Source: an uncultured Acidobacteriota bacterium
Lineage (GTDB): Bacteria > Acidobacteriota > Vicinamibacteria > Vicinamibacterales > CAVVIG01
DNA: 64,000 nucleotides
Assembly (NCBI GenBank): GCA_963761615.1
Contig: CAVXGU010000003.1
Location: 1,155,238-1,219,237, forward strand
Reading direction: 5' to 3'
The notes below the pieces were generated by a model. It ran no database searches, was not told the DNA's origin, and was given only the letters and a program-made list of their open reading frames with translations. Position numbers and translations under genes: made by a program. Position 1 is the stretch's first letter; each line of letters opens with the position of its first letter. Positions 33,339 to 58,969 of the stretch are shown piece by piece.

Positions 33339-33403
33339 GCTGAAGCCCCGTCCACGACAAGGACTCTTGCCGCCGTGCACCTCGCGTCAGAGCCGCTCGG
33401 CGG

Positions 33404-40046: not shown

Positions 40047-40048
40047 CG

Positions 40049-40180
40049 TCAGCCCTTTCGTAGCAGAACAATGATGCTGACCAACCCGGCCAACAGCGCA
40101 ATCCACAGCCCGATCGCGGCGCGCGTGGCCTTACGGGCGCCCTTCTCCTCCCACCAGCTCGCTGAATGAGTGCCCTGCAC
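40049..40180 (-). CDS. candidate 43-aa single-TM micro-protein immediately upstream of the P-type ATPase
   Basis: GTG 40180 .. TGA 40049-40051, 2 nt before the ATPase ATG; (M)QGTHSASWWEEKGARKATRAAIGLWIALLAGLVSIIVLLRKG; about 79 percent G/C at codon position 3; no clear SD. Confidence 0.3.
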   Translation of the reverse strand: MQGTHSASWWEEKGARKATRAAIGLWIALLAGLVSIIVLLRKG

Positions 40181-40249
40181 CGAAAACGTGAGAACGCCGA
40201 CCAGGTTGAGCCCGCGTGCGCTCCGTCCGGCTCCATTCTCGCGTCCGTG

Positions 40250-40852: not shown

Positions 40853-41892
40853 GAGCCTGCCAGGCGCCCTTCCATAGCGGCATCGTATTCGCCGCGAAGC
40901 GCAGCGCGATTACACTCGGCCCGGTGGAGCAGCGCGTGCTGCGCCGCCACTCGACGCGCCTCCGTGCCTCCCCAGATTCCCAGTGCCGGTCGCTGGATGG
41001 CGCGACCGAAGGAAAACGTCAACGCCCAGGGCAGTGGCGACGCCGGTGCTCTGAACCTGACATGCATGGCATTCAAGCGAGCCGAGGCCAGTTCGCCGGA
41101 TTGGCCGCCGGACAGGAACGCAATCCCGGGAACGGCGGCGGGGACGACTCGCAGGAGACAGCGCACCGTCGCGTCCGCTACTTCGTCGACAGTCGCTTGC
41201 GTGCCGCAGGTCAATCCCGGCAGCACCATGTTGGGCTTCAGGATCATCGCCTCCAGCATCACCCGCTGGATCGCGAGCTCATCGAACACTCTTCGCAGCA
41301 CCTCCTCCGTGACCGCGCGGCACCGCTCCAGTGTATGCCCGCCTGCCATGAGCACTTCGGGCTCGACGATCGGGACCAGTCCGGCTTCCTGGCACAACGC
41401 GGCATAGCGAGCCAGCGCCTGCGCGTTGGCCTCGAGGCAAGCGCGGCTGGGCAAGCTGTCGCCCACCGCGATCACCGCGCGCCACTTGGCGAAACGGGCG
41501 CCCATCTGTCCGTACTTCTGGAGGCGGACCCGCAACCCGTCCAGGCCTTCGGTGATCCGTTCACCGGGATGGCCGGCGAGGGGCTTGGCGCCGATGTCCA
41601 CTTTGATGCCGGGCATGATGCCGGCATCGACGAGGACCTTGACGAAGGGGGTGCCGTCCGTCGTCGTCTGGCGGATCGTCTCGTCATAGAGGATCGCGCC
41701 GCTGATGCACGCGGCCAGATCCGGCGTGGTCACCATCAATTCCCGATAGGCGCGGCGGGCCTCCTCGGTCTGGGGAATCCCCGCCTTGGCAAAGCGCTTG
41801 TCGCAGGTGCCCTTGCTCTCGTCCATCGCGAGCAGGCCCTTGCCGCCGGCGACGAGCGCCGTGGCGGCGGCTCGAAGCCCCTGCCCGTTCAT
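40837..41892 (-). CDS. fba: class I fructose-bisphosphate aldolase
   Basis: [41 protein letters not shown] blocks; ATG 41892 overlaps the xfp stop by 4 nt. Confidence 0.9.
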
Positions 41893-44270: not shown

Positions 44271-44623
44271 TCGGACCTCAAGGTTTCGATCGGATCGAGG
44301 AAGGCCGCTTTTCTCGCCGGGTAGTAGCCAAAGCCGATCCCGACGAGGGCGCGTAAGCTTCCCCGTCAAGTAGACAGCGCGAAAGTGGACTTTCCGGGCG
44401 ATGTGGGCCTCGGCAGAAAGGTGAGGGGCGGCACCCGGCCGAGGCTGTCGTGAGTCGGGGGCGCTTGGGAGTCGGTACGACCGGGACCGGGCGGAATGCA
44501 GGAGTCGGATTTGCAGCTCGAACGGGCGTGTCGGTCGTTCGATCCTGCTGGTCGAGTATGCCGGACGACGCCCGTCGGCGGCTGTGTCGTTGTGCACACC
44601 GGCACGACCGATTCGGGCCCACG

Positions 44624-44830
44624 TCACCGCTTCACGGCCTTGCGGACGCGGGACATCGCGTCGCTGGCCTTGTGCCCGATCCGGCCGACAGCGGCCTCGA
44701 CCTTGCCCGCGGTCACGTCCGCCCGGCCCTCGGCCTTGAGGTGGTTGTCACGGGTCACCGCGGCGACCGCCTGCTTGACCTTGCCCTTCGCCTGATCGAC
44801 GTTCCCTCGACGCTCCTTGCTGTTCCACAT
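44624..44830 (-). CDS. CsbD-family stress protein
   Basis: [25 protein letters not shown]...GKVE..VG; 68 aa. Confidence 0.8.
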
Positions 44831-45031
44831 GTGAGGCCTCCATGCGCAGCGATGCGTCGCACCCTGCGTCGGGGCCAGCATGGCATCCGGCCGGGGATCG
44901 CGGTGTACACAAGCGCACAGCCGCGCGTGCCGGTCGAACGGCCGTGCCCGGTGTGCCGTTCGGGACAGTCCGCCGATCGGCGGTCGCCGTACGCTGACAC
45001 TCGAAGATCGTCCACGAAGGGGAGGCAGCTG

Positions 45032-45913
45032 ATGCATCGTCGATTCACGTCCGGAAGTGTGCTCGTCCTGATGGTCGCGCTGGTCGCATCGGTCGCGGTG
45101 TCGGTGCGGGCCGCCAGCGAGCGAGCGACGTTCATCCTCACCAACGGTGACCGGATCAGCGGGCCCGTCGTGTTTCATGGCCGGTCGCGCGAGAACCTGG
45201 TCGACGGCTACATGAGCCTGGGTGCCGAGAACGGCAGGGAGCGATCCGTTCCGGTCGACCAGGTCGCCGTCATCGACTTCGTCGGCGGCCGCCCTCAGCG
45301 CGCGGAACTCCAGGCGCTGCCCTTCGACAGCAGGACGCAGGTCCTGGCCCTGAGAAACGGCTCGATGCAGCCGGGGACGTTCGTCAACATGCTCGGCGGC
45401 GACACCCTCGTCTGGCAGAGTCCGAGAGGGCAGCGCCGGCGGTACGCGATTCGCGATGTCAGCCGCGTGTACTTGAACCTGGAGAGCGCCCGCGCCGTGT
45501 GGGACGTCCGAGGAGGACGTGATCGGAACGGGCCGCCAGTCGCGTTCCGTGGGACGTCGGACGCTGACGCGATCCGCGTCGAGGCGAGTCAGCCCTGGAC
45601 CGAGACCGGAGTCATCGTGAGGCGGGGGGATCGCCTCGCCTTCTTCGCGACGGGCGAGATCAGGTTTTCACGGGATTCCGGGGCCGCCGCCGGACCCGAC
45701 GGGAACGGGAGGACGAGGAGCGCCGGCTATCCGGTGTCCGCGATGTCGCTCGGCGGTTTGATCGGACAGGTCGGTAACAGTGCGCCGTTTCCTATCGGAT
45801 CGAACACGCGGCCGATCGCGATGCCGGCCGACGGGCGCCTCAGGCTCGGCGTCAACGACAACGAGCGGAACGACAACAGCGGGTACTTTGCGGTGGTCAT
45901 TACGAGGCCGTAG
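45032..45913 (+). CDS. secreted protein with C-terminal PA-IL/LecA-like beta-sandwich domain
   Basis: GGGGAGG before the ATG; signal peptide; W.ETGV.V..GD.L.F.A.GEI....GPDG......GGLIG.VG....F.IG......A.G.L.LGVND..NDNSG.F.V.I pattern. Confidence 0.65.
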   Translation: MHRRFTSGSVLVLMVALVASVAVSVRAASERATFILTNGDRISGPVVFHGRSRENLVDGYMSLGAENGRERSVPVDQVAVIDFVGGRPQRAELQALPFDSRTQVLALRNGSMQPGTFVNMLGGDTLVWQSPRGQRRRYAIRDVSRVYLNLESARAVWDVRGGRDRNGPPVAFRGTSDADAIRVEASQPWTETGVIVRRGDRLAFFATGEIRFSRDSGAAAGPDGNGRTRSAGYPVSAMSLGGLIGQVGNSAPFPIGSNTRPIAMPADGRLRLGVNDNERNDNSGYFAVVITRP

Positions 45914-45953
45914 CGGACGGGATCCGCCAGCGGTTCACCTGGAGTACGGACAC

Positions 45954-46286
45954 ATGGAGCGCACGCAGATGGACGAATCACCGCAGGAGCGTCGAACGCA
46001 CGGATTCACGATCGGATTCCTGGCCGGGACGGCCGTTGGCGCCGGCCTGACCCTCTGGCTGGCCCCGCGGGTCGCGGCGGAAGTGTGCGACAGCATGACC
46101 GATGCAGCGCGACGCTTGGGGAAGCGCGCGTCCGACCGGTATCAGCGGGCCAGCAGGCAGGCCGGCGAAGCTGCCAATGAGCTCACCCGGAAGGGCTTGG
46201 GCGTCCGGGACGACGTCGCCGGGGCCGTGGCGCGAGGCGCCCACGAGGTGGAGCGTTACGCCACGTCCGTCAGGACCTCGCCCTGA
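45954..46286 (+). CDS. YtxH-domain protein
   Basis: GFTIGFLAGTAVGAGLTLWLAP TM helix followed by a helical region, as in YtxH proteins. Confidence 0.7.
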   Translation: MERTQMDESPQERRTHGFTIGFLAGTAVGAGLTLWLAPRVAAEVCDSMTDAARRLGKRASDRYQRASRQAGEAANELTRKGLGVRDDVAGAVARGAHEVERYATSVRTSP

Positions 46287-46340
46287 CGGCAGACGGGGAG
46301 GCAGTTCGCGCCGGCTGCCGTCCCCGTCCCGTGGAACGCG

Positions 46341-46538
46341 CTACTCGGACTCCTCGCGATCGAGGAGGCGCCGCTGCAGCCACGCCATGTGGATCGGCTG
46401 CAGGCGGGTGGTCCGGCGGTTTGGATCGCCGTCACAACGGAACACGTGCGCGCGCCGGGGCAAATCTGCCGGATCGGGTTCCGCCAAGAGCTTGACGAAC
46501 GCGTCCAGACAGGCCGAGTCGAGTGGTTGCAGCATCAT
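46341..46538 (-). CDS. hypothetical protein (65 aa)
   Basis: AAGGAGA 5 nt upstream of ATG 46538; no known motif. Confidence 0.45.
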   Translation of the reverse strand: MMLQPLDSACLDAFVKLLAEPDPADLPRRAHVFRCDGDPNRRTTRLQPIHMAWLQRRLLDREESE

Positions 46539-46758
46539 GAGTTCTCCTTGCCGTCCGAGTGCCTCACCTCGCGCCAGTGAGGTACGGCGAGTGCGCGTCT
46601 CGCACTCGAGAGGACTGTACGCAGGCGGCCCGGAAGAGGCTGTTCCGGATTGCACAACTCCTTTGTTTCAAGGCAGAAGGCGTTGGAGGGCGTGTGCTGA
46701 ATGGCACAGATGCGGGCGGCAGGCCTGGGGCATGCTGCTTTACACCAAGGAGTCGACG

Positions 46759-47181
46759 ATGACGGAGATCGCCACGAGGAAGGCCTGCTTGCGCGACATT
46801 CTGCTCGGCCGCCGACGTGAGTTGCAGGCAGACGTCACGCACCGCGTCCGCCAGGCTCGAACCGACCGGCCGAACGATGTACGGGACGAAGTCGACGACT
46901 CGGAGGCGTACCTCTCGGACGACGTCGAGTTCGCGCTGCTTCAGATGAAAGCGGAAACCATGAGCCGCATCGATGAGGCGCTTGGCCGACTCGCGGCGGG
47001 CGACTATGGCCGCTGCTCCGGGTGCGCTGGCGAGATCGCGGAGTCGCGGCTCCGGGCACTGCCGTTCGCGGTGCGGTGCACGAAATGTGAACAGGGACGC
47101 GAGCAGGGGCTCGCGCGCGCGCGGCGGATCTCCCAACAGAACGCCGGCCTCTCGCTCCTCTCGAACCTGCTGACGCCCTGA
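46759..47181 (+). CDS. DksA/TraR-family C4 zinc-finger protein
   Basis: Coiled-coil N-half; CSGCAGEI...RCTKCE (CxxC-17-CxxC). Confidence 0.8.
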   Translation: MTEIATRKACLRDILLGRRRELQADVTHRVRQARTDRPNDVRDEVDDSEAYLSDDVEFALLQMKAETMSRIDEALGRLAAGDYGRCSGCAGEIAESRLRALPFAVRCTKCEQGREQGLARARRISQQNAGLSLLSNLLTP

Positions 47182-49448: not shown

Positions 49449-51395
49449 ATGAGCATGAGTATGAAGGCCAGATCGACAACGAGCCGCCACGTGATGAGTG
49501 CCGTGTGCCTCGTGGCACTGGTCAGCGTCACCGCCCCACAGCGTGCGTCCGCCGCCGGTGATGACGACCCGCCGGATCGGGTCGCGCGCCTGAACTACCT
49601 GCGGGGCCCGGTGTCCTTCCAGCCGGCCGGTGAGGTCGACTGGGTGTCGGCGGCGGTCAATCAGCCCGCAACGACGGGCGACCGCCTGTGGACGGACGAT
49701 AGCGGCCGCGCCGAAATGCACACCGGGTCGGCCACGATTCGGATGGGCGCCCGTACCGGCATGTCGTTCCTCAATCTGGACGACCGCACCACGCAGGTCG
49801 AGCTCTGGGAGGGCACGCTCAATATCCGCGTCGTGCGGCTCGACCCGGACGAGGTCTTCGAGGTCGACGCCCCGAATCAGGCTTTTTCCATTCTTCGCCC
49901 CGGCCAGTACCGCATCGAGGCGAGCGAGGACGGAGCGTCGACGATGGTGACCGTGCGGGCGGGCGAGGGCGAAGTGACCGGCGATGGCCAGATCTACCGC
50001 CTGGAGGCCGGCCTGACCGGAACGTTCTCGGGTACCCGGCCGCTCAGGGCGAGCATCGTCAGGTCGGGCGGCGACGACGAGTTCGACTCGTGGAGTCAGA
50101 GCCGGGACCGTCGCGACGACGCCTCGGCGTCGGCGCGGTACGTGTCGCCGTACGTCGTCGGCTACCAGGATCTCGACGATTACGGCTCCTGGCGTACGGA
50201 TGCGACTTACGGCAACGTGTGGACCCCGCGAGTGGCCGCCGGCTGGGCCCCCTATCGTGACGGCCACTGGGCGTGGGTGTCGCCGTGGGGCTGGACCTGG
50301 GTTGACGACGCCCCGTGGGGCTACGCGCCGTTTCACTACGGCCGCTGGGTGCATACCGGGAGCGCCTGGGGCTGGATCCCTGGACCGGTCGCGGTCCGAG
50401 CGGTGTATGCGCCCGCGCTCGTGGTCTTCTTCGGCGGCGCGAAGTTCGGGGTGTCGCTGTCCGCAGGTGCTGGCAACGTCGGGTGGTTTCCGCTCGGCCC
50501 GGGCGAGGTCTATGTGCCCGCCTATCCGAGCAGCCGCGCCTACGTCGAGCGCGTCAACGTCAGCGAGACCAGGGTCAGCGGTGCGGCCATCGCGCAGGTG
50601 TCCGGCAACGGTACCGGCGCGAACCTGCGCTTCGCGAACCGGGACGTACGGGGCGGCGTGACGGTGGTGTCGCGGGGCACGTTTACCGGCGCCCAGCCGG
50701 TGGGCAGAGCCGTCGTTTCGGTCAGCCAACAGGAGATCGCCTCGGGTCCCATCAGTCGGCGGGCGCAGGTGGCTCCGACGAGGGACAGCGTGTTCGGACG
50801 CACGGTCCAGGCGGGCACCCGCGTGGCTCAGCCCCCGGCTGCGGCGGCCAGCCGGGTCGTGGTCGCCCGGACCGCACCGCCCGCCGCGCCGGTGCCATTC
50901 TCGCGACAGCAGCAGAGGCTCGCCGCGCAGCCGGGCCAGCCACTCGCAAGGGGTGACGTCGAGAGCCTGCGGTCCACGAGCGCCACGACGGAGTCACCCC
51001 GCGTGAGGTTGGCTCCGCCCGGGAGGGTCGTGACGCCGGCATCCGGCCAGCGCGGAGTCCGGCCGGCCGACGCGCCGGTAGTGGAGAAGCCTGCCCGGGG
51101 AAATGGAAACGCGCATCAGGCGGCGCCGAACGCACCCGAGACGCGTTCCGATCGACCGGCCAGGGCGAATCGCCCGCAGCCGGCCGGCGCGCCGGCGGAG
51201 AAGCCCGCCCGTGCCGATGCCAGCCCGAACGAACCGGCGACGCCTGCCAGGTCGAACGCCCACCCGCCGCAGGGTCCGGGCGACAAGAAGGCCGAGACGT
51301 CGGCGAAGGACAAGAAGGCCCCGGGGAAGAAGGTCCCGGGGAAGAAGGTTCCGGCAAAGAAGGACGCGAAGGACCAGGGGGATGACAAGAAGTAG
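49449..51395 (+). CDS. secreted FecR-like/DUF6600-like protein with Trp-rich repeats and Pro/Lys-rich tail
   Basis: Signal peptide; FecR-like beta region (GSATIRMGARTGMSFLNLDD..); WAWVSPWGWTWVDDAPWGYAPFHYGRWV repeats; tail ..KKAPGKKVPGKKVPAKKDAKD. Confidence 0.7.
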   Translation: MSMSMKARSTTSRHVMSAVCLVALVSVTAPQRASAAGDDDPPDRVARLNYLRGPVSFQPAGEVDWVSAAVNQPATTGDRLWTDDSGRAEMHTGSATIRMGARTGMSFLNLDDRTTQVELWEGTLNIRVVRLDPDEVFEVDAPNQAFSILRPGQYRIEASEDGASTMVTVRAGEGEVTGDGQIYRLEAGLTGTFSGTRPLRASIVRSGGDDEFDSWSQSRDRRDDASASARYVSPYVVGYQDLDDYGSWRTDATYGNVWTPRVAAGWAPYRDGHWAWVSPWGWTWVDDAPWGYAPFHYGRWVHTGSAWGWIPGPVAVRAVYAPALVVFFGGAKFGVSLSAGAGNVGWFPLGPGEVYVPAYPSSRAYVERVNVSETRVSGAAIAQVSGNGTGANLRFANRDVRGGVTVVSRGTFTGAQPVGRAVVSVSQQEIASGPISRRAQVAPTRDSVFGRTVQAGTRVAQPPAAAASRVVVARTAPPAAPVPFSRQQQRLAAQPGQPLARGDVESLRSTSATTESPRVRLAPPGRVVTPASGQRGVRPADAPVVEKPARGNGNAHQAAPNAPETRSDRPARANRPQPAGAPAEKPARADASPNEPATPARSNAHPPQGPGDKKAETSAKDKKAPGKKVPGKKVPAKKDAKDQGDDKK

Positions 51396-51418: not shown

Positions 51419-52306
51419 ATGGCATTCCGACTTAGGCCCGGGGAGCCGGTCGCCCGGGAATTGTCCCGTGTGGTGGCCGAGGAGTTCGCGGAGGCGATCG
51501 AGGGGCTCGTCCGGCAGGAGGGCGCGGATCGCGCCGAAGCGGTTCACGGCGTCCGCACGTGCGTCAAGAAGACTCGAGCCGTTCTGCACCTGCTCGAGAA
51601 GAACCTGGGGGACGACTACGGCGCGCTCGACGGGCGCCTGAGGCGCATCGCGCACCGATTGTCGCCGCTGCGCGACCTCGACGCCGGCGCGGAGACCGTG
51701 ATCGCGCTTCGCGATCGCTATCCTGGCCTCGTCACGGGCCCCGTCCTTCGCGCGGCCCAGCAGGGGCTGCGCGCCGGCGTCCGCCGCGCCGAGCCCCGGC
51801 TCGATCCCGAGCGGCTGTTCGGGCAACTCGCCCGCGCGCTCGAGCGATCACGCGAGCCGGTGCGACGGGGAATCCGCGGTGCGGCACGCTCGAGCGCCGT
51901 GCGCGTCGGCGTCGCCCGGGGCTATCGACGCGCGCGCCACGCGATGGCCTCCGTCTGCGCGCATCCGGACGATGCGCAGTTCCACAGGTGGCGCCGGCGC
52001 GTCAAGGACCACTGGTACCGGGTACGGCTGATCGAGGGGCTCGCCGATCAGATGCCGCGCCGGATTGGGCGTCTGAAGCAGCTGGAGACCTGCCTTGGCA
52101 CCGACCACGACCTCGTCGTGCTCCGCGAGACCCTGGTGAAGTCGTCCGCGAGATTCGGAGATCCTCGAATGACGGCCGTCGTCCTGGGCTGCATGGCCAC
52201 GTATCAGACGGCGCTGCGGCGGCACGCGCTGAAGCGCGGCCGACGGCTGTTTGCACGCACGGCGCGGGACTTCCGTGCCCGGATGGACGGAAGACCGACT
52301 ACCTAG
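51419..52306 (+). CDS. CHAD domain protein
   Basis: Helical; AVHGVRTCVKKTRAVLHLL, RL.PLRDLD, FHRWRRRVKDHWY: conserved His/Arg pattern of CHAD. Confidence 0.8.
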   Translation: MAFRLRPGEPVARELSRVVAEEFAEAIEGLVRQEGADRAEAVHGVRTCVKKTRAVLHLLEKNLGDDYGALDGRLRRIAHRLSPLRDLDAGAETVIALRDRYPGLVTGPVLRAAQQGLRAGVRRAEPRLDPERLFGQLARALERSREPVRRGIRGAARSSAVRVGVARGYRRARHAMASVCAHPDDAQFHRWRRRVKDHWYRVRLIEGLADQMPRRIGRLKQLETCLGTDHDLVVLRETLVKSSARFGDPRMTAVVLGCMATYQTALRRHALKRGRRLFARTARDFRARMDGRPTT

Positions 52307-53466
52307 AAGACAGGCTGCTTCGAGAGCGGAGCCGCGTGGAATCGACCCACTCCGAGCAGCCACGCCGCGAGGAACGCGAGACCCGCGCCGGCCAGGGTCA
52401 GCAGGGCGCCGGTCTTGAGCTGGAGACGGAGCGGTCCAAGCCCGAACGACGAGGCGGCGAAGAACAGTCCCACGGTGAGTCCGACCGACGCCGCCAACCC
52501 GATGATCAGCAGCTCCTTCCGGCCCACGCGAGGCGTCCGGTGCAGTCCGACGGCAACGGCGACCTCGGCGCCCGCCAGGATGCCGATGGGCCGCCCGATG
52601 ACCGTCGCGATGGGCACCGCCCACATCCCGGGCTCGAGGCCGTGCAGGGGAACCCCGGCGTTGACCAGCCCGAAGAGGAACAGCACGACCTGAACGAGCG
52701 GTGCTGCCCAGCGCTCGAACCGTGACAGCGCATCGCGTGCCTCGGGTGTCGTGTCGATGAACAGTCCGGCGTGACGTCTGGCATGCGGTACGAACGGCAC
52801 GATGAGCACCAGGGCGAGCGCCGGATGCACGCCGCCGAGGAACAGGCCATACCAGGAGAGGCACCCTGGCAGGACGAGATACGGCCAGAAGGAGGCGACG
52901 CCCCGTCGGCGCATGGCGAGCGCCAGTCCCATCGCCAGACCCACAAGCGCCGTTCCCATCGCGAGACGGACGGGGGTGGCCGGATCGAGGGCTGCCAGGA
53001 TCAACAGCCCGATGGCATCCGAGGCGATCGCCAGTACCAGGAGAAACGGCACGGCCGGGTGGCGTCCGAAGATCAGGCGGCCGACCAGGTAGCACGCCGC
53101 CACGTCGATCGCGGAGGTCACGACCCATGCCTGGACGAGCATCGGCTCGGCCAGTTCATGCAGCAACCCGACATAGAGGAGCGCCGGAACGACGACGCCG
53201 CCGACGGCCGCCGCGACGGGCAGCGCCGCCCGCCGCCAGGGATGCAGGTCGCCGCCAGGCAGGGTGGCTTCCACGACCTCCTTCGTCATGATCGCGAAGA
53301 AGAACGCGATGCCGATCTCGTTCACGGGGAAGTCGAGCGCGTGGGAGAAGCGGTAGTAGCTCGCCGCGAAGGTATTGGCCCAGACGAGTGCCCCCGCGCA
53401 GCCGAGCGGCAGCACCAGGAGCGAATCGACGATGAACAGCGGGATGCGAAAGCGCGTGCGATCCAC
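52303..53466 (-). CDS. nhaA: NhaA-fold cation/proton antiporter (variant active-site residues)
   Basis: Aligns by eye along its length with E. coli NhaA (AALPVAAAVGGVVVPALLY, SAIDVA, LVLAIASDAIGLL, IGRPIGIL); the canonical DD is SD here and Lys300 is Arg. Confidence 0.8.
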   Translation of the reverse strand: MDRTRFRIPLFIVDSLLVLPLGCAGALVWANTFAASYYRFSHALDFPVNEIGIAFFFAIMTKEVVEATLPGGDLHPWRRAALPVAAAVGGVVVPALLYVGLLHELAEPMLVQAWVVTSAIDVAACYLVGRLIFGRHPAVPFLLVLAIASDAIGLLILAALDPATPVRLAMGTALVGLAMGLALAMRRRGVASFWPYLVLPGCLSWYGLFLGGVHPALALVLIVPFVPHARRHAGLFIDTTPEARDALSRFERWAAPLVQVVLFLFGLVNAGVPLHGLEPGMWAVPIATVIGRPIGILAGAEVAVAVGLHRTPRVGRKELLIIGLAASVGLTVGLFFAASSFGLGPLRLQLKTGALLTLAGAGLAFLAAWLLGVGRFHAAPLSKQPVF

Positions 53467-53477: not shown

Positions 53478-54386
53478 CTACCGTCCCGCGGGCCCGACCA
53501 GGGTCTCGCCCGTGCCCGGTCGCGCCGGGAGGTGAATGGTCCCCGAATCGACGACGAGGCCGGTGCGGCTCACCGCCTGGAACCAGAGCTCGTCGCCGAG
53601 AATTTCCACCAGCATGAAGCTGTTGTCCCGATCGAACCCCGCCGCGGTCATGGCCGACCGCCTGAGGTCGCCCTTCCGCAGTTCCCCCGCGGAACCGGAG
53701 ACGAAGTAGGAGATCCCTTTCTGTGGTCTCAGCCGCTCATAGATGTGGTCGTGACCGGAGAACACGACGTCCACGCCGTAGGTCACAAAGAGCGGCTCCA
53801 GGACGACGCGCAGGTTCAGATCCGATCCATGGGTGGCGCCGTCGGAGTAGAGGGGATGATGGAAATAGACGATCTTCCACGCGTCGGACGAGGCCTTCAA
53901 GGCCCCTTGCAGCCAGGCCTGCTGCTTCGGGTCCAGGTCGTCGCTGTCGAGGACGAAGAACCGGACGTTCCGCTCCGCGAAGGTGTAGTAGCGTTCCCCG
54001 CCCATGTGGAATCCGGGGTAGTTCCGATTGTCCGGGCTGTCGTGATTGCCGAGCGCGGCATAGAAGGTCACGCCGGCATCGAGCAGCCCCCTGTAGGGCT
54101 GCGCGAACTTCTGGTCGAGATCCTTCGCCGTCTGGCCCCCGTAGATGTTGTCGCCCAGCATGATCACCCGGTCGAAGGGGAACGTCACGTGGGAACGCAA
54201 CATCTGGGCGGCGACGTCGAACTGGGAGCGGGCGCCGTCACCCGAGTCGCCGATGACGGCGAACTTCACCGAATCGGCCGCATCGGGCAGCCGCACGTCC
54301 TGTGCCACGGCGATCTGGCCGGTGCTGACAACGGCCAGCACCGCCAGAAGCCGCACGAACGCCCGATAGCTCGCCCGACTGCTCAC
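53478..54386 (-). CDS. secreted calcineurin-like metallophosphoesterase (purple-acid-phosphatase-like)
   Basis: Signal peptide; GDSGDG, GDNIY, GNHD, HHP, SGHDH motifs in canonical order. Confidence 0.85.
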   Translation of the reverse strand: MSSRASYRAFVRLLAVLAVVSTGQIAVAQDVRLPDAADSVKFAVIGDSGDGARSQFDVAAQMLRSHVTFPFDRVIMLGDNIYGGQTAKDLDQKFAQPYRGLLDAGVTFYAALGNHDSPDNRNYPGFHMGGERYYTFAERNVRFFVLDSDDLDPKQQAWLQGALKASSDAWKIVYFHHPLYSDGATHGSDLNLRVVLEPLFVTYGVDVVFSGHDHIYERLRPQKGISYFVSGSAGELRKGDLRRSAMTAAGFDRDNSFMLVEILGDELWFQAVSRTGLVVDSGTIHLPARPGTGETLVGPAGR

Positions 54387-54418: not shown

Positions 54419-54841
54419 TTACCGGCAGACTCCCGCGATTCTCTTCATGTGGGTCACGCCCAGGTAGGCAGCGCTCCCCTCGGTCTCGGCGTGCGTGTCG
54501 CCGGTCGGGCCGTCGACCTTCGTGTCGGTCTTCATCTCGACGCTGCCGTTGCCGCGATCGCCGAGCTTTCCGTCGATCTGCACGCGGCGGCCGACGACCT
54601 TGGAAAAGTCTTCCTTGCTCGAGACCAGCGTGTAGGCGTGCATGGGATGGGTCTTGTTGGCGACCTCGGTCAGGACATAGTCGCCGTCCGACCGGGTGGT
54701 CACGCAGCCGGTGACCCTCATGGCCTTCCCGTTCTCGACCGTGATCTTCGTCGTCGTGGTCGTCTGGTTCGCCTGGGCGACGAGCGCCACGGCTCCGGCA
54801 ACTGCAAAGCAACACGTGAGCGTCACACTGGTTTTTGTCAT
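54419..54841 (-). CDS. small secreted protein, unknown function
   Basis: ATG 54841; signal peptide MTKTSVTLTCCFAVAGAVALVAQA; beta-rich 115-aa mature part. Confidence 0.55.
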   Translation of the reverse strand: MTKTSVTLTCCFAVAGAVALVAQANQTTTTTKITVENGKAMRVTGCVTTRSDGDYVLTEVANKTHPMHAYTLVSSKEDFSKVVGRRVQIDGKLGDRGNGSVEMKTDTKVDGPTGDTHAETEGSAAYLGVTHMKRIAGVCR

Positions 54842-54935
54842 GTCGACCAGCCTAGCTGCCCTGTCCCAGATCCCCCTGTCTCCAATTGCACAGCCCGCCT
54901 TCGGCGCGCTCCCTAGAGTGGGATAGACCCAGGAC

Positions 54936-56777
54936 ATGTCTGAAGTCGCGACGCCGCGCTCACGCTCGCCCTCCGGTCGCACGCTGAGGGTCATGGACCT
55001 GGTGCGGCCCTACTGGAAGGCGTTGACGATCGCGCTGGTGGCGGTGCTCGGCGAAACGCTCACGGACATCCTCGAGCCGTGGCCCATCAAGGTCGTCGTC
55101 GACAACATCCTGCAGGGGAAGGCGCTGCCCGCGCGCCTCGGGGCCGCCGTCTCTGGCCTCTTCGGCCGGAACACGTACGCCACCGTCAACTTCGCGGTGG
55201 CGGCCGTGGCGGCGATCGCCGTGGTCGGCGCCCTCAGCGCCTACCTCGAGACGTACCTGACGACGAACGTGAGCCAGTGGGTGGGACACGACCTGAGGCG
55301 GACGCTCTATCACCACATTCAACGCCTGTCCCTCGCGGAACACGACCAGTCGCGAAGCGGCGATTTCATCACGCGGGTGACGAGCGACATCGAGGCGGTG
55401 CAGGACTTCATCAGCTCGGCGCTCCTCGGGATGCTCGTCGACGTGATGACGCTGGTCGGCATGATCGGCGTCATGTTCTATCTCAACTGGCGCTTCACGC
55501 TGATTGCCCTCTCGGTCTCGCCGGTGCTGTTCGTGGTGGTCTACTCCTTCACACGCCGCATCAAGCGGGCATCGCGCGCGGTCCGCCGGAGGGAGGGCGA
55601 CCTCCTGTCCATCGTCTCGGAAGTACTGTCCTCGATTCGCGTCGTGCAGGCCTTTGCCCGGGAAGACTACGAGCAGGCGCGGTTCGAGTCCGAGAGCCTG
55701 GCGAATGTCGAAGCCGGGCTCGAAGCACGCAACATCAAGGCGACCCTGGCGCCTGTGGTCGAGGTGATCGTCGCGATCGGGACCTGCCTCGTGCTCTGGT
55801 TCGGCGCGCGTCTTGCGCTCGCCGGAGAGCTGAGCGCCGGCGTCCTCATCGTCTTTCTGCTGTATCTCGGGAAGATGTACAAGCCCATGCGGGACCTGTC
55901 GAAGATGACCGACACCGTGTCCAAGGCGGCCGTGGGCTACGAGCGCATCCAGGAAGTGCTGGACATCGAGAGCCGCGTGCGGGATCTGCCGGGCGCCAGA
56001 AAGGCTCCCCGACTCGCCGGGCGCATCAGCCTCGACCGTGTGAGCTTCAGCTACGACGCCGGCGGGGAAGTGCTGAAGGACGTCAGCCTCACCATCGAGG
56101 CCGGGCAGGTGGCGGCGATCGTCGGTCCGTCGGGAACCGGAAAGACCACCCTCGCGAGCCTGATCCCCCGCTTCTACGATCCCACGTCCGGATCCGTCTG
56201 CATCGACGGCACGGACGTGCGCCGGTATCGCCTCAAGTCCGTGCGGGACCAGATCAGCTTCGTGCTGCAGGACACGCTCCTGTTCCGCGCCACGATCTGG
56301 GAAAACATCGCCTACGGCAGGCCCGATGCCTCACCCAGGGCCATCAGGCACGCGGCCGAGCTGGCCAACGCGTGCGAGTTCATCGAGGCGATGCCCGACG
56401 GGTACGACACGATGGTCGGCGAGCGTGGCGTCACGCTGTCGGGCGGTCAGCGCCAGCGCATTGCCATCGCCCGCGCGATCATTCGCGAGACGCCCATCCT
56501 GATTCTCGACGAGCCGACCGCGGGCCTGGACGCGGCGGCCGAGCAGTCGGTGATCGCCGCCCTGGACACCCTGATGAAGGGGCGCACCTCGGTCGTCATC
56601 GCCCATCATCTCGGCACGATCCGCCACGCCGACGTCATCTTCGTCATCAAGGGCGCGGTGCTCGTCGAGCGGGGCACCCACGAGGAGCTGCTGGCTCAGA
56701 ACGGGGTGTATGCCGAATTGCACAGAATCCAGACCTCCGAGGGGTCCACAATCGCTCTCCCGCAGCCAGCTGCCTGA
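54936..56777 (+). CDS. ABC exporter, fused permease-ATPase (MsbA/ABCB-like)
   Basis: 6-TM N-half; Walker A GPSGTGKTT; LSGGQRQRIAIARA; ILILDEPTAGLD; H-loop. Confidence 0.9.
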   Translation: MSEVATPRSRSPSGRTLRVMDLVRPYWKALTIALVAVLGETLTDILEPWPIKVVVDNILQGKALPARLGAAVSGLFGRNTYATVNFAVAAVAAIAVVGALSAYLETYLTTNVSQWVGHDLRRTLYHHIQRLSLAEHDQSRSGDFITRVTSDIEAVQDFISSALLGMLVDVMTLVGMIGVMFYLNWRFTLIALSVSPVLFVVVYSFTRRIKRASRAVRRREGDLLSIVSEVLSSIRVVQAFAREDYEQARFESESLANVEAGLEARNIKATLAPVVEVIVAIGTCLVLWFGARLALAGELSAGVLIVFLLYLGKMYKPMRDLSKMTDTVSKAAVGYERIQEVLDIESRVRDLPGARKAPRLAGRISLDRVSFSYDAGGEVLKDVSLTIEAGQVAAIVGPSGTGKTTLASLIPRFYDPTSGSVCIDGTDVRRYRLKSVRDQISFVLQDTLLFRATIWENIAYGRPDASPRAIRHAAELANACEFIEAMPDGYDTMVGERGVTLSGGQRQRIAIARAIIRETPILILDEPTAGLDAAAEQSVIAALDTLMKGRTSVVIAHHLGTIRHADVIFVIKGAVLVERGTHEELLAQNGVYAELHRIQTSEGSTIALPQPAA

Positions 56778-56813
56778 TTCAAGGCCGTCGCTGCCGAAGA
56801 AGGGTGCAGAGCC

Positions 56814-57824
56814 ATGTTCCGACTAGCCAGGCGCCTGTCCGTCGCCCTGATCGTGGTGGTGGCCCTGTCCATGCCCTTCAGTGCGCAGAAGAAGGGCCGT
56901 ACGGGTACACGCGAGGCGGACGCCAAGGCATCGGCCGCGATCTGGAGCGACCCGGGCAGCGTCGCTTCCCTCGATCTGATTTACGGTGTCGGCGGGAAGA
57001 CGCATGCGCCCGATCCAGGCGGCACGTACACCTTCGTCAAGGAGGACATGGCCGGCACCAGTCCCAAGTTCGAGATTCGGGACGCGCAGGGCGTTCGGTG
57101 GAAGGTGAAGCTCGGCGCGGAGCCCGGGTCGGAGACCGCGGCCACGCGCTTTCTGTGGGCGGCCGGCTACTTCGTGGACGAAGACTATTACCTGGCGTCG
57201 CTCAAGGTGACGGGGATGCCGACCCTGCAACGGGGCGGGAAGTTCGTCCTCGCGGACGGGACTGTCCGCCGGGCCCGGCTGGAGCGCGACCTGCCCGGCC
57301 TGAAAAAGGAAGGCGGGTGGAACTGGTTCGCCAATCCGTTCACCGGCACGCGCGAGCTGAACGGCCTGCGGATCATGATGTCGCTGGTGAACGACTGGGA
57401 CCTGAGCGAGGCGAACAACTCGATCGACCAGACGGACGGCCAGCGCCGCTACGTCGTGTCCGACCTGGGCGCCAGCTTCGGCAACACCGGAAACAGCCTC
57501 ACGCGATCCAAGGGCGAGCCGAGGGACTATGCGGGCTCGACCTTCATCGATGACGCGTCCGGTCCGGCGATCGACTTCGTGATGCACAGCCGGCCGTTCT
57601 TCCTGGGCGTCGTCAACGTCAACAACTATCGCGACCGGACGCGGATGGAGCGGGTGGCCAAGCACATTCCGCGCGCCGACGCGCAGTGGCTCGGGCGGCG
57701 GCTCTCGCAGCTGTCCGACGAGCAGATCCGCGACGGGTTCCGCGCGGGGGGCTACGCGGGCGGTGACCTCGAGACGTACACGCAGACCATGCGGAAGCGG
57801 ATCGCCGAACTGGGTGCGCTGTGA
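56814..57824 (+). CDS. signal-peptide-bearing protein with protein-kinase-like motif order (function unknown)
   Basis: Signal peptide MFRLARRLSVALIVVVALSMPFSAQ. Then GVRWKVKLG (beta3-Lys-like), SETAATR (alphaC-Glu-like), LVNDWDLSEANN (catalytic-loop-like D....N), VVSDLGASFG (DFG-like). 4-nt overlap with the PLD gene. Confidence 0.6.
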   Translation: MFRLARRLSVALIVVVALSMPFSAQKKGRTGTREADAKASAAIWSDPGSVASLDLIYGVGGKTHAPDPGGTYTFVKEDMAGTSPKFEIRDAQGVRWKVKLGAEPGSETAATRFLWAAGYFVDEDYYLASLKVTGMPTLQRGGKFVLADGTVRRARLERDLPGLKKEGGWNWFANPFTGTRELNGLRIMMSLVNDWDLSEANNSIDQTDGQRRYVVSDLGASFGNTGNSLTRSKGEPRDYAGSTFIDDASGPAIDFVMHSRPFFLGVVNVNNYRDRTRMERVAKHIPRADAQWLGRRLSQLSDEQIRDGFRAGGYAGGDLETYTQTMRKRIAELGAL

Positions 57825-58969
57825 AGCTGATCGTCGCGCCAGAGGCCGGCGTCGGGCCGCTGCTGGCCGGGATCAGGAGCGCAAAGAAGAGCGTGGAGAT
57901 TGCCATCTTCCGCTTCGATCGGCGCGACATCGAAATGGCGCTGAAGGCGTCGGCGGCCGCCAAGCGCGTCGGGGTGACCGCCGTCATCGCGTTCGCCAAC
58001 CGGGGCGGCGAACAGAATCTCCGCCGGCTCGAGCAGCGCTTCCTCGATGCGGGCATCATCGTGGCCCGCAGCGCCAGCGATCTGAGCCGCTATCACGGGA
58101 AGTACGTCCTGATCGATCGCCGCGTGCTCTACGTCCTGTCGTTCAACTTCACGCACCTGGACATCGACCACAGCCGGGGCTTCGGCCTGGTGACCACCAA
58201 CCCGAACTGGATCCGCGAAGCCGCGAGGCTGTTCGAGGCGGACTGCACGCATACCGCGTACGTCCCGGCGAGGCGAACGGACACGTTTGTCGTGAGCCCC
58301 ACGAACTCGCGGCGAGTGCTGGGGGCCTTCCTGCGGGGGGCGCGATCCCAGCTGCTGATCTACGACCCGAAGATCTCGGATACGGAGATGCTGCGCCTGC
58401 TGCACGAACGGGCGAAGGCGGGCGTCGAAGTCAAGGTCATCGGCTCCATCGCCGGACTCACCGACCTCGACGTGCAGAAGCTGAGCGGCACGCGGCTGCA
58501 CACCCGCACCATCATCCGGGACCGGCGTCAAGCCTTCATTGGCAGCCAGAGTCTTCGCAAGGCGGAGCTGGATGCGCGTCGAGAGGTGGGGCTGATCGTC
58601 CGGGACGCGAAGGTCGTGAGGCGGCTGCTGGAGACGTTCGAGGCCGACTGGACGTCGACGGCCAGCAGAAGGGCCGTGGCGGCACCGAAGGAACGAAGCA
58701 AGGCCGAGCCGAACGCGGAAGCGGAGAAGACAGGCGTGTCCGACCGAGATGCCGAGAAGGCCGTCCAGATCCTCACGAAGGAGCTGGACCCGCTCGTCGT
58801 GAGCGTGAAGAAGGCCGTGAGGATCGCCGTGGCCAAGATCGGCGACGACGTCCTCAGCGACAGCGACGTCAAGGACACGATGAAGGACGTCGTCAAGCGG
58901 GCCGTCAAGGACGCGGTGAAAGAAGCCGTGCACGACGCCCACGACGCCAGGGTCAGGGAGGCGTCCTAG
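57821..58969 (+). CDS. phospholipase D-superfamily protein (two HKD-type motifs) with amphipathic Lys/Asp/Val-rich tail
   Basis: Motif 1 YHGKYVLIDRRVLYVLSFNF (58094-); motif 2 LHTRTIIRDRRQAFIGSQSL (58499-) with K to R and N to S; tail KKAVRIAVAKIGDDVLSDSDVKDTMKDVVKRAVKDAVKEAV. Confidence 0.8.
   Translation: MKLIVAPEAGVGPLLAGIRSAKKSVEIAIFRFDRRDIEMALKASAAAKRVGVTAVIAFANRGGEQNLRRLEQRFLDAGIIVARSASDLSRYHGKYVLIDRRVLYVLSFNFTHLDIDHSRGFGLVTTNPNWIREAARLFEADCTHTAYVPARRTDTFVVSPTNSRRVLGAFLRGARSQLLIYDPKISDTEMLRLLHERAKAGVEVKVIGSIAGLTDLDVQKLSGTRLHTRTIIRDRRQAFIGSQSLRKAELDARREVGLIVRDAKVVRRLLETFEADWTSTASRRAVAAPKERSKAEPNAEAEKTGVSDRDAEKAVQILTKELDPLVVSVKKAVRIAVAKIGDDVLSDSDVKDTMKDVVKRAVKDAVKEAVHDAHDARVREAS

Follow-up and report, generated by a model that had tools for sequence, protein, structure and literature searches.

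An ABC exporter, a protein with kinase-like motifs behind a Sec-type signal peptide, and a PLD-superfamily enzyme are encoded side by side in an uncultured member of the Acidobacteriota, which raises the question of what the three might do together. A first-pass annotation had proposed a module for lipid or phospho-headgroup remodeling and export, in which the middle protein (here MID) would be an extracytoplasmic kinase-fold component, possibly a pseudokinase, a binding protein or a user of another phosphoryl donor. We analyzed the locus within a 64,000-nucleotide stretch of DNA (the window) and compared it with related loci in other genomes.

Extent and conservation of the cluster

The ORF list agrees with the earlier description of 54936-58969 as three co-directional genes, with a 36-nt gap between the ABC and MID genes and a 4-nt overlap (GTGA) between the MID and PLD genes (Table 1). 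Although these ORFs are real, the functional unit is larger than that range, and the minus-strand gene at 53478-54386 also belongs to it; this gene encodes a secreted purple acid phosphatase (PAP), which did not figure in the first-pass account of the module. The intergenic region upstream of the ABC gene contained no match to the sigma-70 consensus, no terminator and no Rfam match. Within the window, the cluster lies in a central-metabolism context.

Table 1. Features of the cluster and of the proteins that it encodes, in window coordinates
Feature	Position	Strand	Remarks
Secreted purple acid phosphatase (PAP-type metallophosphoesterase) gene	53478..54386	-	Divergently transcribed; fourth conserved module member
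Small secreted protein	54419..54841	-	140 aa from internal ATG, two Cys; between phosphatase and ABC gene
Divergent intergenic region	54842..54935	.	94 bp, common to both transcription units; from sequence
ABC exporter gene	54936..56777	+	613-aa ORF
MID gene (kinase-fold protein)	56814..57824	+	336-aa ORF
Predicted MID signal peptide, residues 1-25, ending ...SAQ	56814..56888	+	n-h-c architecture; K/E-rich linker after
MID N-lobe elements: T82-S-P-K85-F (G-loop position), W96-K-V-K99 (beta3 lysine), E107 (alphaC glutamate)	57066..57134	+	
MID catalytic loop D196...N201 and DFG-like D217-x-G219	57399..57464	+	
PLD-superfamily gene	57821..58969	+	382-aa ORF
PLD motif 1, H92-x-K94-x4-D99 ... S107-x-N109, canonical HKD	58094..58147	+	Invariant in 66/67 orthologues
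PLD motif 2, H227-x-R229-x4-D234 ... G241-S-x-S244	58499..58552	+	Invariant in 66-67/67 orthologues
Conserved C-terminal helical repeat tail of PLD (…VKKAVRIAVAK…VKRAVKDAVKEAV)	58754..58930	+	From ortholog alignment; variable acidic linker before

When we checked the co-conservation of the trio across genomes, both the ABC and the PLD gene lay beside MID in 51 of 60 well-flanked loci, 41 of which also held the phosphatase gene. Counted singly, the ABC gene adjoined MID in 52 of the 60 (median identity, 73%), the PLD gene was co-located with it in 53 and the phosphatase gene was present in 42, usually downstream of the PLD gene. At five loci (L068, L074, L075, L080 and L084) the genes are rearranged yet still adjacent, and linkage is kept with lipoprotein-type MIDs that are 31 to 36% identical to that of the window (L090, L092, L115, L121 and L125). 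About 10 of 80 MID genes are separated from the ABC and PLD genes, and several of these belong to the same clade as that of the window. Single-copy and chromosomal, the cluster shows high conservation across classes of Acidobacteriota, and its hosts are oligotrophic soil members of that phylum.

These features bear on the idea that the kinase, PLD and phosphatase are a secreted effector or toxin set, aimed at other cells and served by a dedicated ABC exporter. CtkA and many other bacterial atypical kinases are effectors, PLD toxins exist, and the PLD protein here has no Sec signal and ends in a conserved tail with the potential, in principle, to direct secretion. However, a single-copy chromosomal cluster with that degree of ABC identity over Acidobacteriota classes looks like housekeeping rather than an arms race, the cluster lacks a membrane-fusion or TolC partner as well as an immunity gene, its context is central metabolism, and MID gives no PADLOC or PHROG signal; we hold this explanation to be extremely improbable.

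MID, a predicted exported kinase-fold protein

Searches with MID returned no match in Pfam, NCBIfam, PADLOC or PHROG, and sequence-profile searches detected no solved relative and no kinase. Homologues of MID number over 3,600, with 1,821 representatives of clusters at 50% identity, and MID is, in the window, the founding member of an unnamed family. Its predicted fold is protein-kinase-like: all 50 of the 50 best Foldseek matches of the AlphaFold (AF2) model (pLDDT, 88.2; pTM, 0.84) in the PDB are kinases, the best being Fam20C (E, 9e-5; probability, 1.0), CtkA, HipA, PI3K and CotH, with PI4KIIa also among them, and an earlier, weaker model likewise matched kinases. The comparison of 56814-57824 with kinase folds that the first-pass annotation had suggested thus yielded kinase folds only and no non-kinase fold. 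The TM-scores of these matches are 0.35 to 0.45 at 8 to 12% identity, and therefore MID is not assignable to any characterized kinase family and no substrate class can be transferred to it.

The best structural match, Fam20C (Golgi casein kinase; 4kqa, 4kqb and 5yh0), combines an atypical kinase fold with a signal peptide and acts outside the cytosol, as MID is predicted to do. The two nevertheless share 8 to 10% identity, a TM-score of 0.36 to 0.44 and no Pfam match, and MID, a much smaller protein, contains no Cys, hence no disulfides. HipA, HipT and CtkA (Pfam HipA_C; 3dnt, 3tpv, 8ezr and 3akk) recur among the fold matches, and their motifs are, by eye, like those of MID (G-x-x-P-K-F, W-K-V-K, a helix with E, N-x-W-D-x4-N-N and then an Asp); the HipA_C model did not match the MID of the window and gave E 0.11 in 2 of 52 family members. 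HipA and HipT act as toxins in the cytoplasm and are paired with antitoxins, whereas the MID locus has no antitoxin-like gene, and CtkA activity relies on a type IV secretion system rather than on Sec (PMC5536186). The CotH spore-coat kinases (5jda and 5jd9), which match the fold at E 2e-3, are likewise bacterial, with an atypical kinase fold and an extracellular-layer target. They differ in that they lack a Sec signal, do not resemble MID in sequence and work from the cytoplasm of the mother cell, which contains ATP.

The motifs that had been listed for MID in kinase order (WKVK, an SE helix, NDWDLSEANN and SDLG) are real and conserved family-wide. Their central residues (K99 in WKVK, E107 in SETAATR, D196 and N201 in NDWDLSEANN and D217 in SDLG) are invariant in 57 family sequences of 41 to 69% identity and invariant or at least 90% conserved among relatives at 30 to 50% identity. 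T82-S-P-K85-F, WKVK and E107 are invariant in alignment A3, K99 and E107 show at least 90% conservation in A2 and no variation in A4 or A5, and D196 is invariant at every alignment depth. Judged from these alignments, the conservation, which spans hundreds of clusters, is far beyond chance. The model places alphaE, the loop, two strands and the Asp in kinase-fold order, with the strand and helix positions of the N lobe likewise modeled, and hhalign paired D196 and N201 with HipA D309 and N314 at an E-value (0.52) that is not significant.

Because all five residues are conserved to about 30% identity, a pseudokinase is unlikely, and we predict that MID is catalytically competent, with a full Lys/Glu/Asp/Asn/Asp set. 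The kinase fold proposed in the first-pass annotation therefore stands, but its options of a pseudokinase or a mere binding protein lose ground. A noncatalytic MID, serving as an envelope pseudokinase, a ligand-binding protein or a scaffold, would suit a family too divergent for profile detection of a kinase and a periplasm that is not known to contain available ATP. Pseudokinases, however, typically lose some catalytic residues, whereas the Lys, Glu, Asp, Asn and metal-binding Asp are here near-invariant, and we rate this alternative as quite improbable.

The N-terminal n-h-c segment of MID (MFRLARRLSVALIVVVALSMPFSAQ; 12-mer Kyte-Doolittle hydropathy, 2.9) has low pLDDT in the AF2 model, and we infer that it is cleaved as a signal peptide. 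A segment of this type is present in 265 of 279 full-length family members (95%), and lipoboxes are present in 5. Two members (P0123 and P0213) carry a fused outer-membrane barrel of the Omp85 type, a stand-alone homologue of which is encoded immediately upstream of the MID gene at 14 metagenome loci, and MID paralogues have PBP1A, BON, DD-carboxypeptidase and secreted-protease genes as neighbors. Because of the family-wide signal peptides, the lipobox variants, the Omp85 fusions and the adjoining barrel gene, MID is very probably extracytoplasmic, as had been proposed.

As far as computation allows, we did not find the reverse arrangement, an uncleaved anchor with a cytoplasmic catalytic domain. 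In such a scheme a cytoplasm-facing kinase would use ATP on the ABC substrate prior to its export, in the manner of WaaP and KdkA on LPS, and the Lys-rich stretch after the segment in the window's subfamily (QKKGRTG; consensus, QKKDKxKEK), an unusual feature right behind a Sec cleavage site, would be accounted for. Yet the hydrophobic core spans only some 15 residues, classical AxA sites or lipoboxes occur in distant members, and the fused or adjoining Omp85 barrels and the periplasmic enzymes beside MID paralogues also argue against it; we consider an anchor very unlikely. WaaP and KdkA offer a working analogy only, that of a kinase-fold enzyme acting on what an MsbA-type exporter transports: unlike MID, they act at the cytoplasmic face and have no signal peptides, and they were absent from the Foldseek matches of both models.

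The exporter, the PLD enzyme and the phosphatase

The ABC protein (Pfam ABC_membrane, 6e-56; ABC_tran, 5e-35) is a TMD-NBD half-transporter of the type IV/ABCB fold with intact ATPase motifs (Walker A, signature, Walker B/E and H-loop). Its earlier description as an MsbA-like half-transporter fusion is apt as to architecture, which it has in common with MsbA and other type IV half-transporters; PDB matches are strong, the nearest bacterial ones being Sav1866 and MsbA, and the best NCBIfam model is TIGR02203 MsbA (4e-153). It is not an MsbA orthologue, however: its 510.9 bits fall below the equivalog cutoff of 602, and at 33% identity to E. coli MsbA it has R78 replaced by G, R148 by V and K299 by R, so that the lipid-A-binding ring of the MsbA-LPS structures has lost two of its three basic residues, R78 and R148. 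Unlike msbA, its gene does not adjoin lpxK.

The PLD protein contains PLDc_2 twice (7.5e-26) and, as previously noted, no signal peptide or N-terminal hydrophobic segment, whereas ClsA has an N-terminal TM helix. Of the two HKD motifs reported, motif 1 is canonical, but motif 2 reads HxR...GSxS, with Arg for Lys and Ser for Asn. Nuc/NucT, Serratia PLD, ClsB/ClsC and PPK1 C1-C2 likewise carry two PLDc_2 domains as a pseudo-dimer with a canonical motif 1; the family-fixed motif 2 and the helical repeat tail distinguish the present enzyme from them. Among solved structures the nearest relatives are Serratia PLD (7e0m), Nuc, NucT and MitoPLD, the N-terminal domain is similar to the nucleases Nuc and NucT, and only PPK1 C-terminal domains match across both domains. 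All specific PLD family models score far below cutoff (cardiolipin synthase, 20 bits versus 290), and the label "cardiolipin synthase" comes from automatic annotation only. The substrate could be a lipid, a nucleic acid or a polyphosphate-like molecule, and the tail, noncationic in distant orthologues (that of L090, for example), may be a membrane or partner-docking element.

A lipid-remodeling reading of the module is plausible. The exported kinase fold and the co-conserved trio bear out the first-pass proposal in part, and a lipid or phospho-headgroup would be one possible substrate. In its full form, an inner-leaflet PLD would be a cardiolipin or phospholipid synthase or hydrolase, the ABC protein would flip the product, MID would be a PI4K-like periplasmic headgroup kinase and the phosphatase would edit the headgroup. 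Consistent with this are the MsbA model, the lipid flippases MsbA and ABCB4 among the PDB relatives of the exporter, the hydrolysis of phospholipid by 7e0m, the PI3K and PI4KIIa matches of MID and a PLD tail that could bind membrane. Against it stand the subthreshold MsbA and cardiolipin synthase scores, the loss of lipid-A-contacting residues, the noncationic tails of distant orthologues, the lack of any demonstrated lipid-binding feature in MID and, at some loci, dTMP-kinase-like partners that misfit a pure lipid pathway; in this form we regard it as possible but doubtful.

The phosphatase (Metallophos, 3.6e-18; human and rat PAP/TRAP structures, 1.9e-13) holds all five PAP metal-ligand motifs (GDSG, GDNIY, GNHD, HH and GHDH), including the GDxxY tyrosine, as do mammalian TRAP/ACP5 and plant PAPs, from which it differs as a bacterial minimal form of about 300 aa. 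Its predicted signal peptide ends ...AVAQD. Genetic coupling of a PAP to an exported kinase fold has not been described. At one MID locus (L083) there is a PF04185 phosphoesterase. Elsewhere the module also includes a small secreted protein (X), the stand-alone barrel and two dTMP-kinase-like genes, found as pairs at L085, L090, L091, L094 and L095; the window has no homologue of X and no dTMP-kinase-like genes. Because dTMP-kinase-like genes occur in related loci, nucleotide or phosphoryl-donor chemistry is at least as likely as lipids.

Such partners would also suit the scavenging or import of extracellular nucleotides or organophosphate, with MID, periplasmic or surface located, capturing nucleotides in its ATP pocket, PAP freeing phosphate, the ABC protein acting as an exporter-fold importer and the cytoplasmic Nuc-like PLD and dTMP-kinase-like enzymes performing salvage. 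The recurrence of a secreted PAP or, in L083, of the phosphoesterase fits this scheme, as do the dTMP-kinase-like pairs, the Nuc- and NucT-like domain, the oligotrophic hosts and the barrel beside lipoprotein-type MIDs, an arrangement seen with surface-lipoprotein foragers. But the close relatives of the ABC protein are all exporters, the invariant catalytic-base Asp D196 would be needless for binding alone and no phosphate-regulation signal was detectable, and scavenging seems to us unlikely.

A candidate envelope phosphoryl-transfer module

We favor, with a probability of roughly 0.5, the reading that the locus encodes a conserved module for phosphoryl transfer in the cell envelope, centered on a catalytically competent MID exported by Sec. 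The PLD enzyme, on the cytoplasmic side, would make or trim a phosphodiester-containing molecule through a phospho-histidine intermediate, in some lineages with a contribution from the two dTMP-kinase-like P-loop kinases; most simply, the molecule would be membrane associated and lipid-like. The ABC exporter would carry it over the inner membrane, and MID, located in the periplasm or on the outer membrane, would modify an envelope target by transfer of a phosphoryl group or, like certain kinase folds, of a nucleotidyl group. The secreted phosphatase would then take the group off, giving an extracytoplasmic kinase/phosphatase pair by analogy with Fam20C and ACP5. In animals, the action of Fam20C is opposed by the secreted purple acid phosphatase ACP5, and the MID cluster likewise holds a PAP gene. 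Fam20C obtains ATP via Golgi transporters, of which no periplasmic equivalent is known; the donor for MID might be scavenged ATP or one brought by the ABC exporter. The conjunction of an undescribed exported kinase-fold enzyme with an exporter, a PLD and a phosphatase points to an envelope phosphate-handling system not yet known.

In the window, the place that protein X occupies elsewhere is taken by a small secreted protein that is not homologous to it and gave a weak DUF4131 match only; one homologue of this protein, with 60% identity, is encoded divergently from the MID gene in L002.

The locus and the fold of MID

An operon of three genes had been proposed in the first-pass annotation, and we confirmed three same-strand ORFs, encoding an ABC exporter, MID (the middle protein) and a PLD-superfamily enzyme, with a 36-nt gap after the first and then a 4-nt GTGA overlap. 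The trio is present as described, but the conserved module is larger, and a secreted phosphatase also belongs to it. No riboswitch, promoter or terminator signals were found at the locus.

Positions of the genes, related loci and MID model elements discussed in the text. Plain numbers are window coordinates; L-numbers denote genome or metagenome loci.
Feature	Position	Strand	Length or remark
ABC exporter ORF	54936-56777	+	613 aa
MID ORF	56814-57824	+	336 aa
PLD-superfamily ORF	57821-58969	+	382 aa
Secreted purple-acid-phosphatase-type gene	53478-54386	-	divergent, upstream of ABC gene
Small secreted protein gene	54419-54841	-	140 aa
NhaA antiporter gene	52303-53466	-
CHAD-domain gene	51419-52306	+
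DUF6600 protein gene	49449-51395	+	648 aa
Metabolic and transport genes	27879-47181
Long ORFs without Pfam match	15943-17616; 21073-24549; 25287-27665
MID model, beta1	residues 72-78
MID model, loop after beta1	T82-S-P-K85-F		then beta2
MID model, beta3	ends at K99
MID model, helix	residues 104-116		bears E107
MID model, helix	residues 180-191
MID model, catalytic loop	D196 and N201		two strands next
MID model, DFG-type element	D217-x-G219
MID-Omp85 fusions P0123, P0213	L085:406-2598
dTMP-kinase-like pairs	L085:2615-4002; L090:3562-4892; L091; L094; L095
Out-of-cluster MID paralogue neighborhoods	L008:4665-7987; L020:6201-7888; L076; L002
Protein X gene	L004:9260-9859
PF04185 phosphoesterase gene	L083:2815-3675

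Scans of MID against Pfam (E ≤ 1), NCBIfam, PADLOC and PHROG gave no match, and no solved structure was matched when all PDB sequences were searched with phmmer or with a 52-sequence profile. We modeled the protein twice with AlphaFold, from 40 close homologues (pLDDT 74) and, with AF2, from 57 sequences of 41-69% identity (alignment A3; pLDDT 88.2, pTM 0.84), the low confidence in the second model being confined to the signal peptide and linker. Comparison with the PDB by Foldseek, in which the 50 best matches were examined per model, returned kinases as 50 of 50 for both models, 11 of them at E ≤ 1e-3 with the second model. The top match was Fam20C/Golgi casein kinase (E 9e-5, probability 1.0), and the others included Helicobacter pylori CtkA, PI3Ks, HipA, HipT, CotH, PI4KIIa and actin-fragmin kinase, at modest TM-scores (0.35-0.45) and identities of 8-12%. 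On the strength of these exclusively kinase matches we are certain, as far as a predicted model allows, that MID has a protein-kinase-like (PKL) fold, as had been suspected, and the low scores and identities place it in no characterized kinase family.

In the model, the secondary-structure elements follow one another as in a canonical kinase, with an N-lobe beta-sheet and alphaC followed by a C-lobe catalytic loop, two strands and a metal-binding Asp. The beta3 Lys (K99), alphaC Glu (E107), catalytic Asp (D196), N201 and DFG-type D217 are invariant in the 57 sequences of A3. Among family members at 30-50% identity (alignment A2), D196 remained invariant and K99, E103, E107, R112, N201, D217 and G219 were at least 90% conserved, and two further alignments, built from distant members of lipoprotein type (A4 and A5), likewise showed the catalytic residues as invariant. 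Thus, the motifs read earlier in kinase order (WKVK, an SE helix, NDWDLSEANN and SDLG) correspond to conserved positions. A non-catalytic MID is one alternative reading; a pseudokinase is disfavored by the retention of every residue of the catalytic set.

Neither HipA nor Fam20 provides a close relative. The HipA_C model (PF07804) did not match the window MID and reached E 0.11 in 2 of 52 family members, and when the MID family profile was aligned with Escherichia coli HipA by hhalign, the catalytic loop alone was aligned (D196 to D309, N201 to N314); because the E-value was 0.52, we treat this suggestive alignment as a lead and not as a test. Nor does MID show the toxin-antitoxin context and cytoplasmic location expected of the HipA/CtkA family: it has an N-terminal signal peptide and ABC, PLD and phosphatase genes, rather than a hipB/hipS-type partner, as its neighbors. 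Fam20 gave no Pfam match with MID (E ≤ 1), and its structural alignments ran at 8-10% identity with TM-scores of 0.36-0.44. A weak match to the Pfam model Permuted_GreAB-C in 8 of 52 family members (best E 4e-4) did not recur when the ten longest were scanned, and we set it aside as probably spurious. The NCBI MAG record of one MID homologue (P0443; 322 aa, 59% identity) calls it a “DUF493 domain-containing protein,” probably a misannotation.

We scored more than 3,600 MID homologues, almost all annotated “hypothetical,” and clustering at 50% identity gave 1,821 representatives (E ≤ 1e-3). These more than 1,800 clusters, abundant in soil Acidobacteriota, appear to retain an intact kinase active site and are predicted to be systematically exported. 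No model in Pfam (2025) or NCBIfam (2026) covers MID or protein X, a small secreted protein of related loci, and full-text searching turned up no relevant account of exported bacterial kinases resembling HipA or Fam20, or of the present gene cluster. MID is, as judged from its sequence, a new family in a known superfamily, with an unusual predicted localization and a multigene context without prior description.

Predicted export of MID

The N terminus of MID has a basic n-region, a hydrophobic core of about 15 residues and an end in ...SAQ. A signal-type segment of this kind opens 265 of 279 full-length family proteins, with classical AxA sites in many and lipoboxes in five. Two cluster representatives, P0123 and P0213, are fusions of MID with a C-terminal Omp85-superfamily barrel. 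A stand-alone barrel is homologous to the fused one (BLASTP 1e-7 across its whole length), and at 14 metagenome loci (range L099-L163) such a barrel, of 446 aa and without a Pfam match, is encoded immediately upstream of a lipoprotein-type MID, an arrangement resembling pairs of surface lipoproteins and their translocators. Fam20 kinases have a signal peptide and act outside the cytosol, and the export signals, lipoboxes and Omp85 fusions of the family favor a similar predicted location for MID.

We consider export of MID to be strongly supported by these sequence features, with signal-peptide cleavage as a prediction only. In the window's own subfamily, a Lys-rich stretch follows the signal segment, which is unusual past a cleavage site; the unlikely alternative here is that MID is an anchored kinase facing the cytoplasm, to be set against the AxA sites and lipoboxes of other family members and the two barrel fusions. 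Export by the Tat route was rejected, since orthologues do not share the RR of the window protein.

Away from the cluster, MID paralogues adjoin envelope genes encoding a class A penicillin-binding protein (PBP), a BON-domain protein, an S13 DD-carboxypeptidase and S8 and trypsin-like proteases, and 4-nt overlaps indicative of translational coupling join such paralogues to the class A PBP gene and to the BON-domain gene. This hints that part of the family is connected with the cell wall.

The conserved gene neighborhood

We searched with the window proteins (tblastn) in 80 species-representative loci, nearly all from Acidobacteriota, and found the order ABC-MID-PLD in most of them. Carriers of the cluster include Granulicella- and Terracidiphilus-type genomes (L080 and L007). 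Linkage was counted in the 60 loci having at least 4 kb on both sides of MID. The ABC gene accompanied MID in 52 of these, the PLD gene in 53 and both in 51, so that the co-conservation expected of the trio was borne out; ABC, PLD and phosphatase genes were all present in 41 and protein X in 34, and 5 had none of the four. Median identities to the window proteins were 73% (ABC), 60% (PLD), 57% (MID) and 55% (phosphatase). About ten MID genes, several in the window's own clade, lie apart from ABC and PLD genes.

The genes also stay together when rearranged. Four loci (L068, L074, L075 and L080) have the arrangement PLD(-) MID(+) ABC(-), and in L084 a phosphatase<-X<-PLD group diverges from ABC->MID. 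A metagenome scan seeded with six lipoprotein-type MIDs, 31-36% identical to the window MID, recovered further versions: MID, two dTMP-kinase-like genes, ABC and PLD (L090); phosphatase(-) and X(-), then MID, ABC and PLD (L115); a barrel, MID, PLD, X and phosphatase with ABC on the other strand (L121); and X, phosphatase, PLD(-) and MID (L125). Downstream of the Omp85 fusion P0123, too, come a pair of dTMP-kinase-like genes and an ABC gene of this type. Linkage thus survives both rearrangement and deep divergence of MID, and we therefore take MID, ABC, PLD and phosphatase to be the core of the network, with X, the dTMP-kinase-like pair and the outer membrane barrel as lineage-specific additions.

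Protein X (about 200 aa) carries a signal peptide and is matched by no model in Pfam or NCBIfam. Its gene sits between the PLD and phosphatase genes in most genomes and is always paired with a purple acid phosphatase gene (L004 and 45 other loci). The window has no X homologue; an unrelated small secreted protein, with a TTTTT stretch and two Cys, fills its place, its gene and the ABC gene diverging from a shared 94-bp region. The sole clear homologue of this protein (60% identity) is encoded in L002, divergent from a MID gene at a locus without ABC and PLD genes. An effector set is an unlikely alternative reading of the cluster. The MID family is tightly linked, at the level of its genes, with an ABC exporter, a secreted phosphatase and a putative phospho-histidine-type transferase.

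Several distant versions of the cluster carry, between MID and the ABC gene, a tandem pair of dTMP-kinase-like genes (PF02223) that the window lacks. Their products, about 37% identical to each other, score 82 bits against TIGR00041 (cutoff, 83) and look like cytoplasmic P-loop proteins without a signal peptide. These partners suggest nucleotide or donor chemistry, in which the exporter may supply a phosphoryl donor.

Partner proteins and a proposed pathway

The cluster phosphatase has a Metallophos domain, matches human purple acid phosphatase (PAP) at E 1.9e-13 and carries all five PAP metal-ligand motifs (GDSG, GDNIY, GNHD, FHHP and GHDH; pattern GDxG, GDxxY, GNH(D/E), VxxH and GHxH), which identifies it as a probable secreted PAP-type metallophosphoesterase and the fourth gene of the module. 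In the 17-kb locus L083, a 46%-identity version of the cluster, no PAP gene was called and a PF04185 phosphoesterase (phospholipase C/acid phosphatase family) adjoins the PLD gene; therefore, a secreted phosphoesterase, whatever its family, may be the required function.

The ABC ORF encodes a fusion of a TMD (ABC_membrane, 6e-56) to an NBD (ABC_tran, 5e-35) with intact Walker A, signature, Walker B/Glu and H-loop motifs, as in type IV ABC exporters (ABCB-like half-transporters). An MsbA-like half-transporter is what had been described, and the likeness holds, but the protein is not an MsbA orthologue: it shares 33% identity with E. coli MsbA and scores 510.9 bits against its best model, the MsbA equivalog TIGR02203 (cutoff, 602). 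In MsbA-LPS structures, E. coli R78, R148 and K299 form a basic ring contacting the lipid A phosphates; the window protein has G, V and R at these positions, as do 59 to 61 of 62 orthologues (59-60 for the G and V). With a score under the cutoff and R78 and R148 replaced, we rejected a housekeeping MsbA; the sequence is that of an ABCB/MsbA-like exporter.

The PLD protein contains two PLDc_2 stretches (7.5e-26) and, as the first-pass annotation had it, no signal peptide, an N-terminal hydrophobic segment being absent. The two HKD-type motifs also noted there stand in part: motif 1 is canonical (H92-x-K-x4-D...S-x-N), but motif 2 departs from the HxK(x)4D(x)6GSxN pattern (H227-x-R-x4-D...G-S-x-S; HxR(x)4D(x)6GSxS) and is a fixed variant, shared by 66 of 67 orthologues. 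The nearest solved relatives are the Serratia PLD 7e0m for the C-terminal domain, Nuc and NucT for the N-terminal domain, and MitoPLD; matches spanning both domains were weak and confined to the C1-C2 pair of PPK1. The structure 7e0m is that of a Serratia phospholipid PLD (PMC8004604). Neither a cardiolipin synthase (TIGR04265, 20 bits; cutoff, 290) nor PPK1 (NF003917, 35 bits; cutoff, 470) was indicated, both scores being far under the cutoffs and ClsA-type N-terminal TM helices absent, and the “cardiolipin synthase” names on orthologues are JGI automatic labels. A DISARM DrmC-like defense system was likewise rejected, the similarity being that of generic PLD domains, with no other defense genes. 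We regard the protein as a putative cytoplasmic phospho-histidine-type transferase or hydrolase. Its C-terminal tail, with conserved helical (V/M)K(K/E)AV repeats after a variable acidic linker, may serve in membrane binding or partner docking.

All functional statements on the cluster are computational. The most likely mechanism, we infer, is that cytoplasmic enzymes would make ready a phosphate-containing molecule, the exporter would carry it outward, MID would transfer a phosphoryl or nucleotidyl group within the envelope and the PAP would take that group off again. The alternative in which the ABC protein is an exporter-fold importer would turn the cluster, secreted phosphatase included, to nucleotide or organophosphate scavenging. 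The operon had been read as a lipid or phospho-headgroup module with an extracytoplasmic kinase-fold component; the kinase fold and the export signals stand, and the lipid version is a plausible, though hypothetical, special case of the proposed mechanism.

Phosphorylation outside the bacterial cytoplasm is generally held to be marginal or impossible, since ATP is not known to be supplied to that space. A working kinase/phosphatase analogue is the Fam20C and ACP5 pair of animal secretory pathways. A far-reaching version of the mechanism, which we think unlikely (about one chance in seven), is a dedicated extracytoplasmic phosphorylation machinery: PLD, with the dTMP-kinase-like pair where present, would produce a high-energy donor of phosphoryl or nucleotide type, which the ABC protein would deliver across the inner membrane to the Sec-exported kinase; certain lineages would pass this kinase on to an outer membrane barrel or have the two fused, and the PAP would reset the mark. 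If true, bacteria would thereby possess a counterpart of the Fam20C/ATP-transporter/ACP5 system, and a kinase working where ATP is absent would be explained. If MID is active, the donor and substrate of an extracytoplasmic kinase become directly testable, and the enzyme could reveal an envelope modification of a new kind in a soil phylum that is dominant yet poorly studied. Most conservatively, the analysis adds a kinase-like family and an HKD/HRD PLD subfamily, both new, and a conserved 4- to 7-gene module, all of which are currently annotated “hypothetical” or mislabeled “cardiolipin synthase.”

CHAD proteins are usually associated with polyphosphate granules, and a CHAD-domain gene (match, 6e-28) is located some 2.6 kb away from the cluster, adjoined by an NhaA antiporter gene; a polyphosphate link was rejected, as the CHAD gene is not kept beside the cluster in other genomes. 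The wider window (G+C, ~68%), part of a 3.07-Mb contig, holds central carbon metabolism and transporters, with genes for PGI, transketolase, phosphoketolase (XFP), a glycogen-phosphorylase-like protein, a P-type ATPase and a DksA/TraR zinc-finger protein, and gives no hint of what the cluster does. Three long ORFs without a Pfam match may be spurious at this G+C content. The secreted DUF6600 protein ends in a long Pro/Ala/Lys-rich low-complexity C-terminal tail (…KKAPGKKVPGKKVPAKKDAKDQGDDKK).
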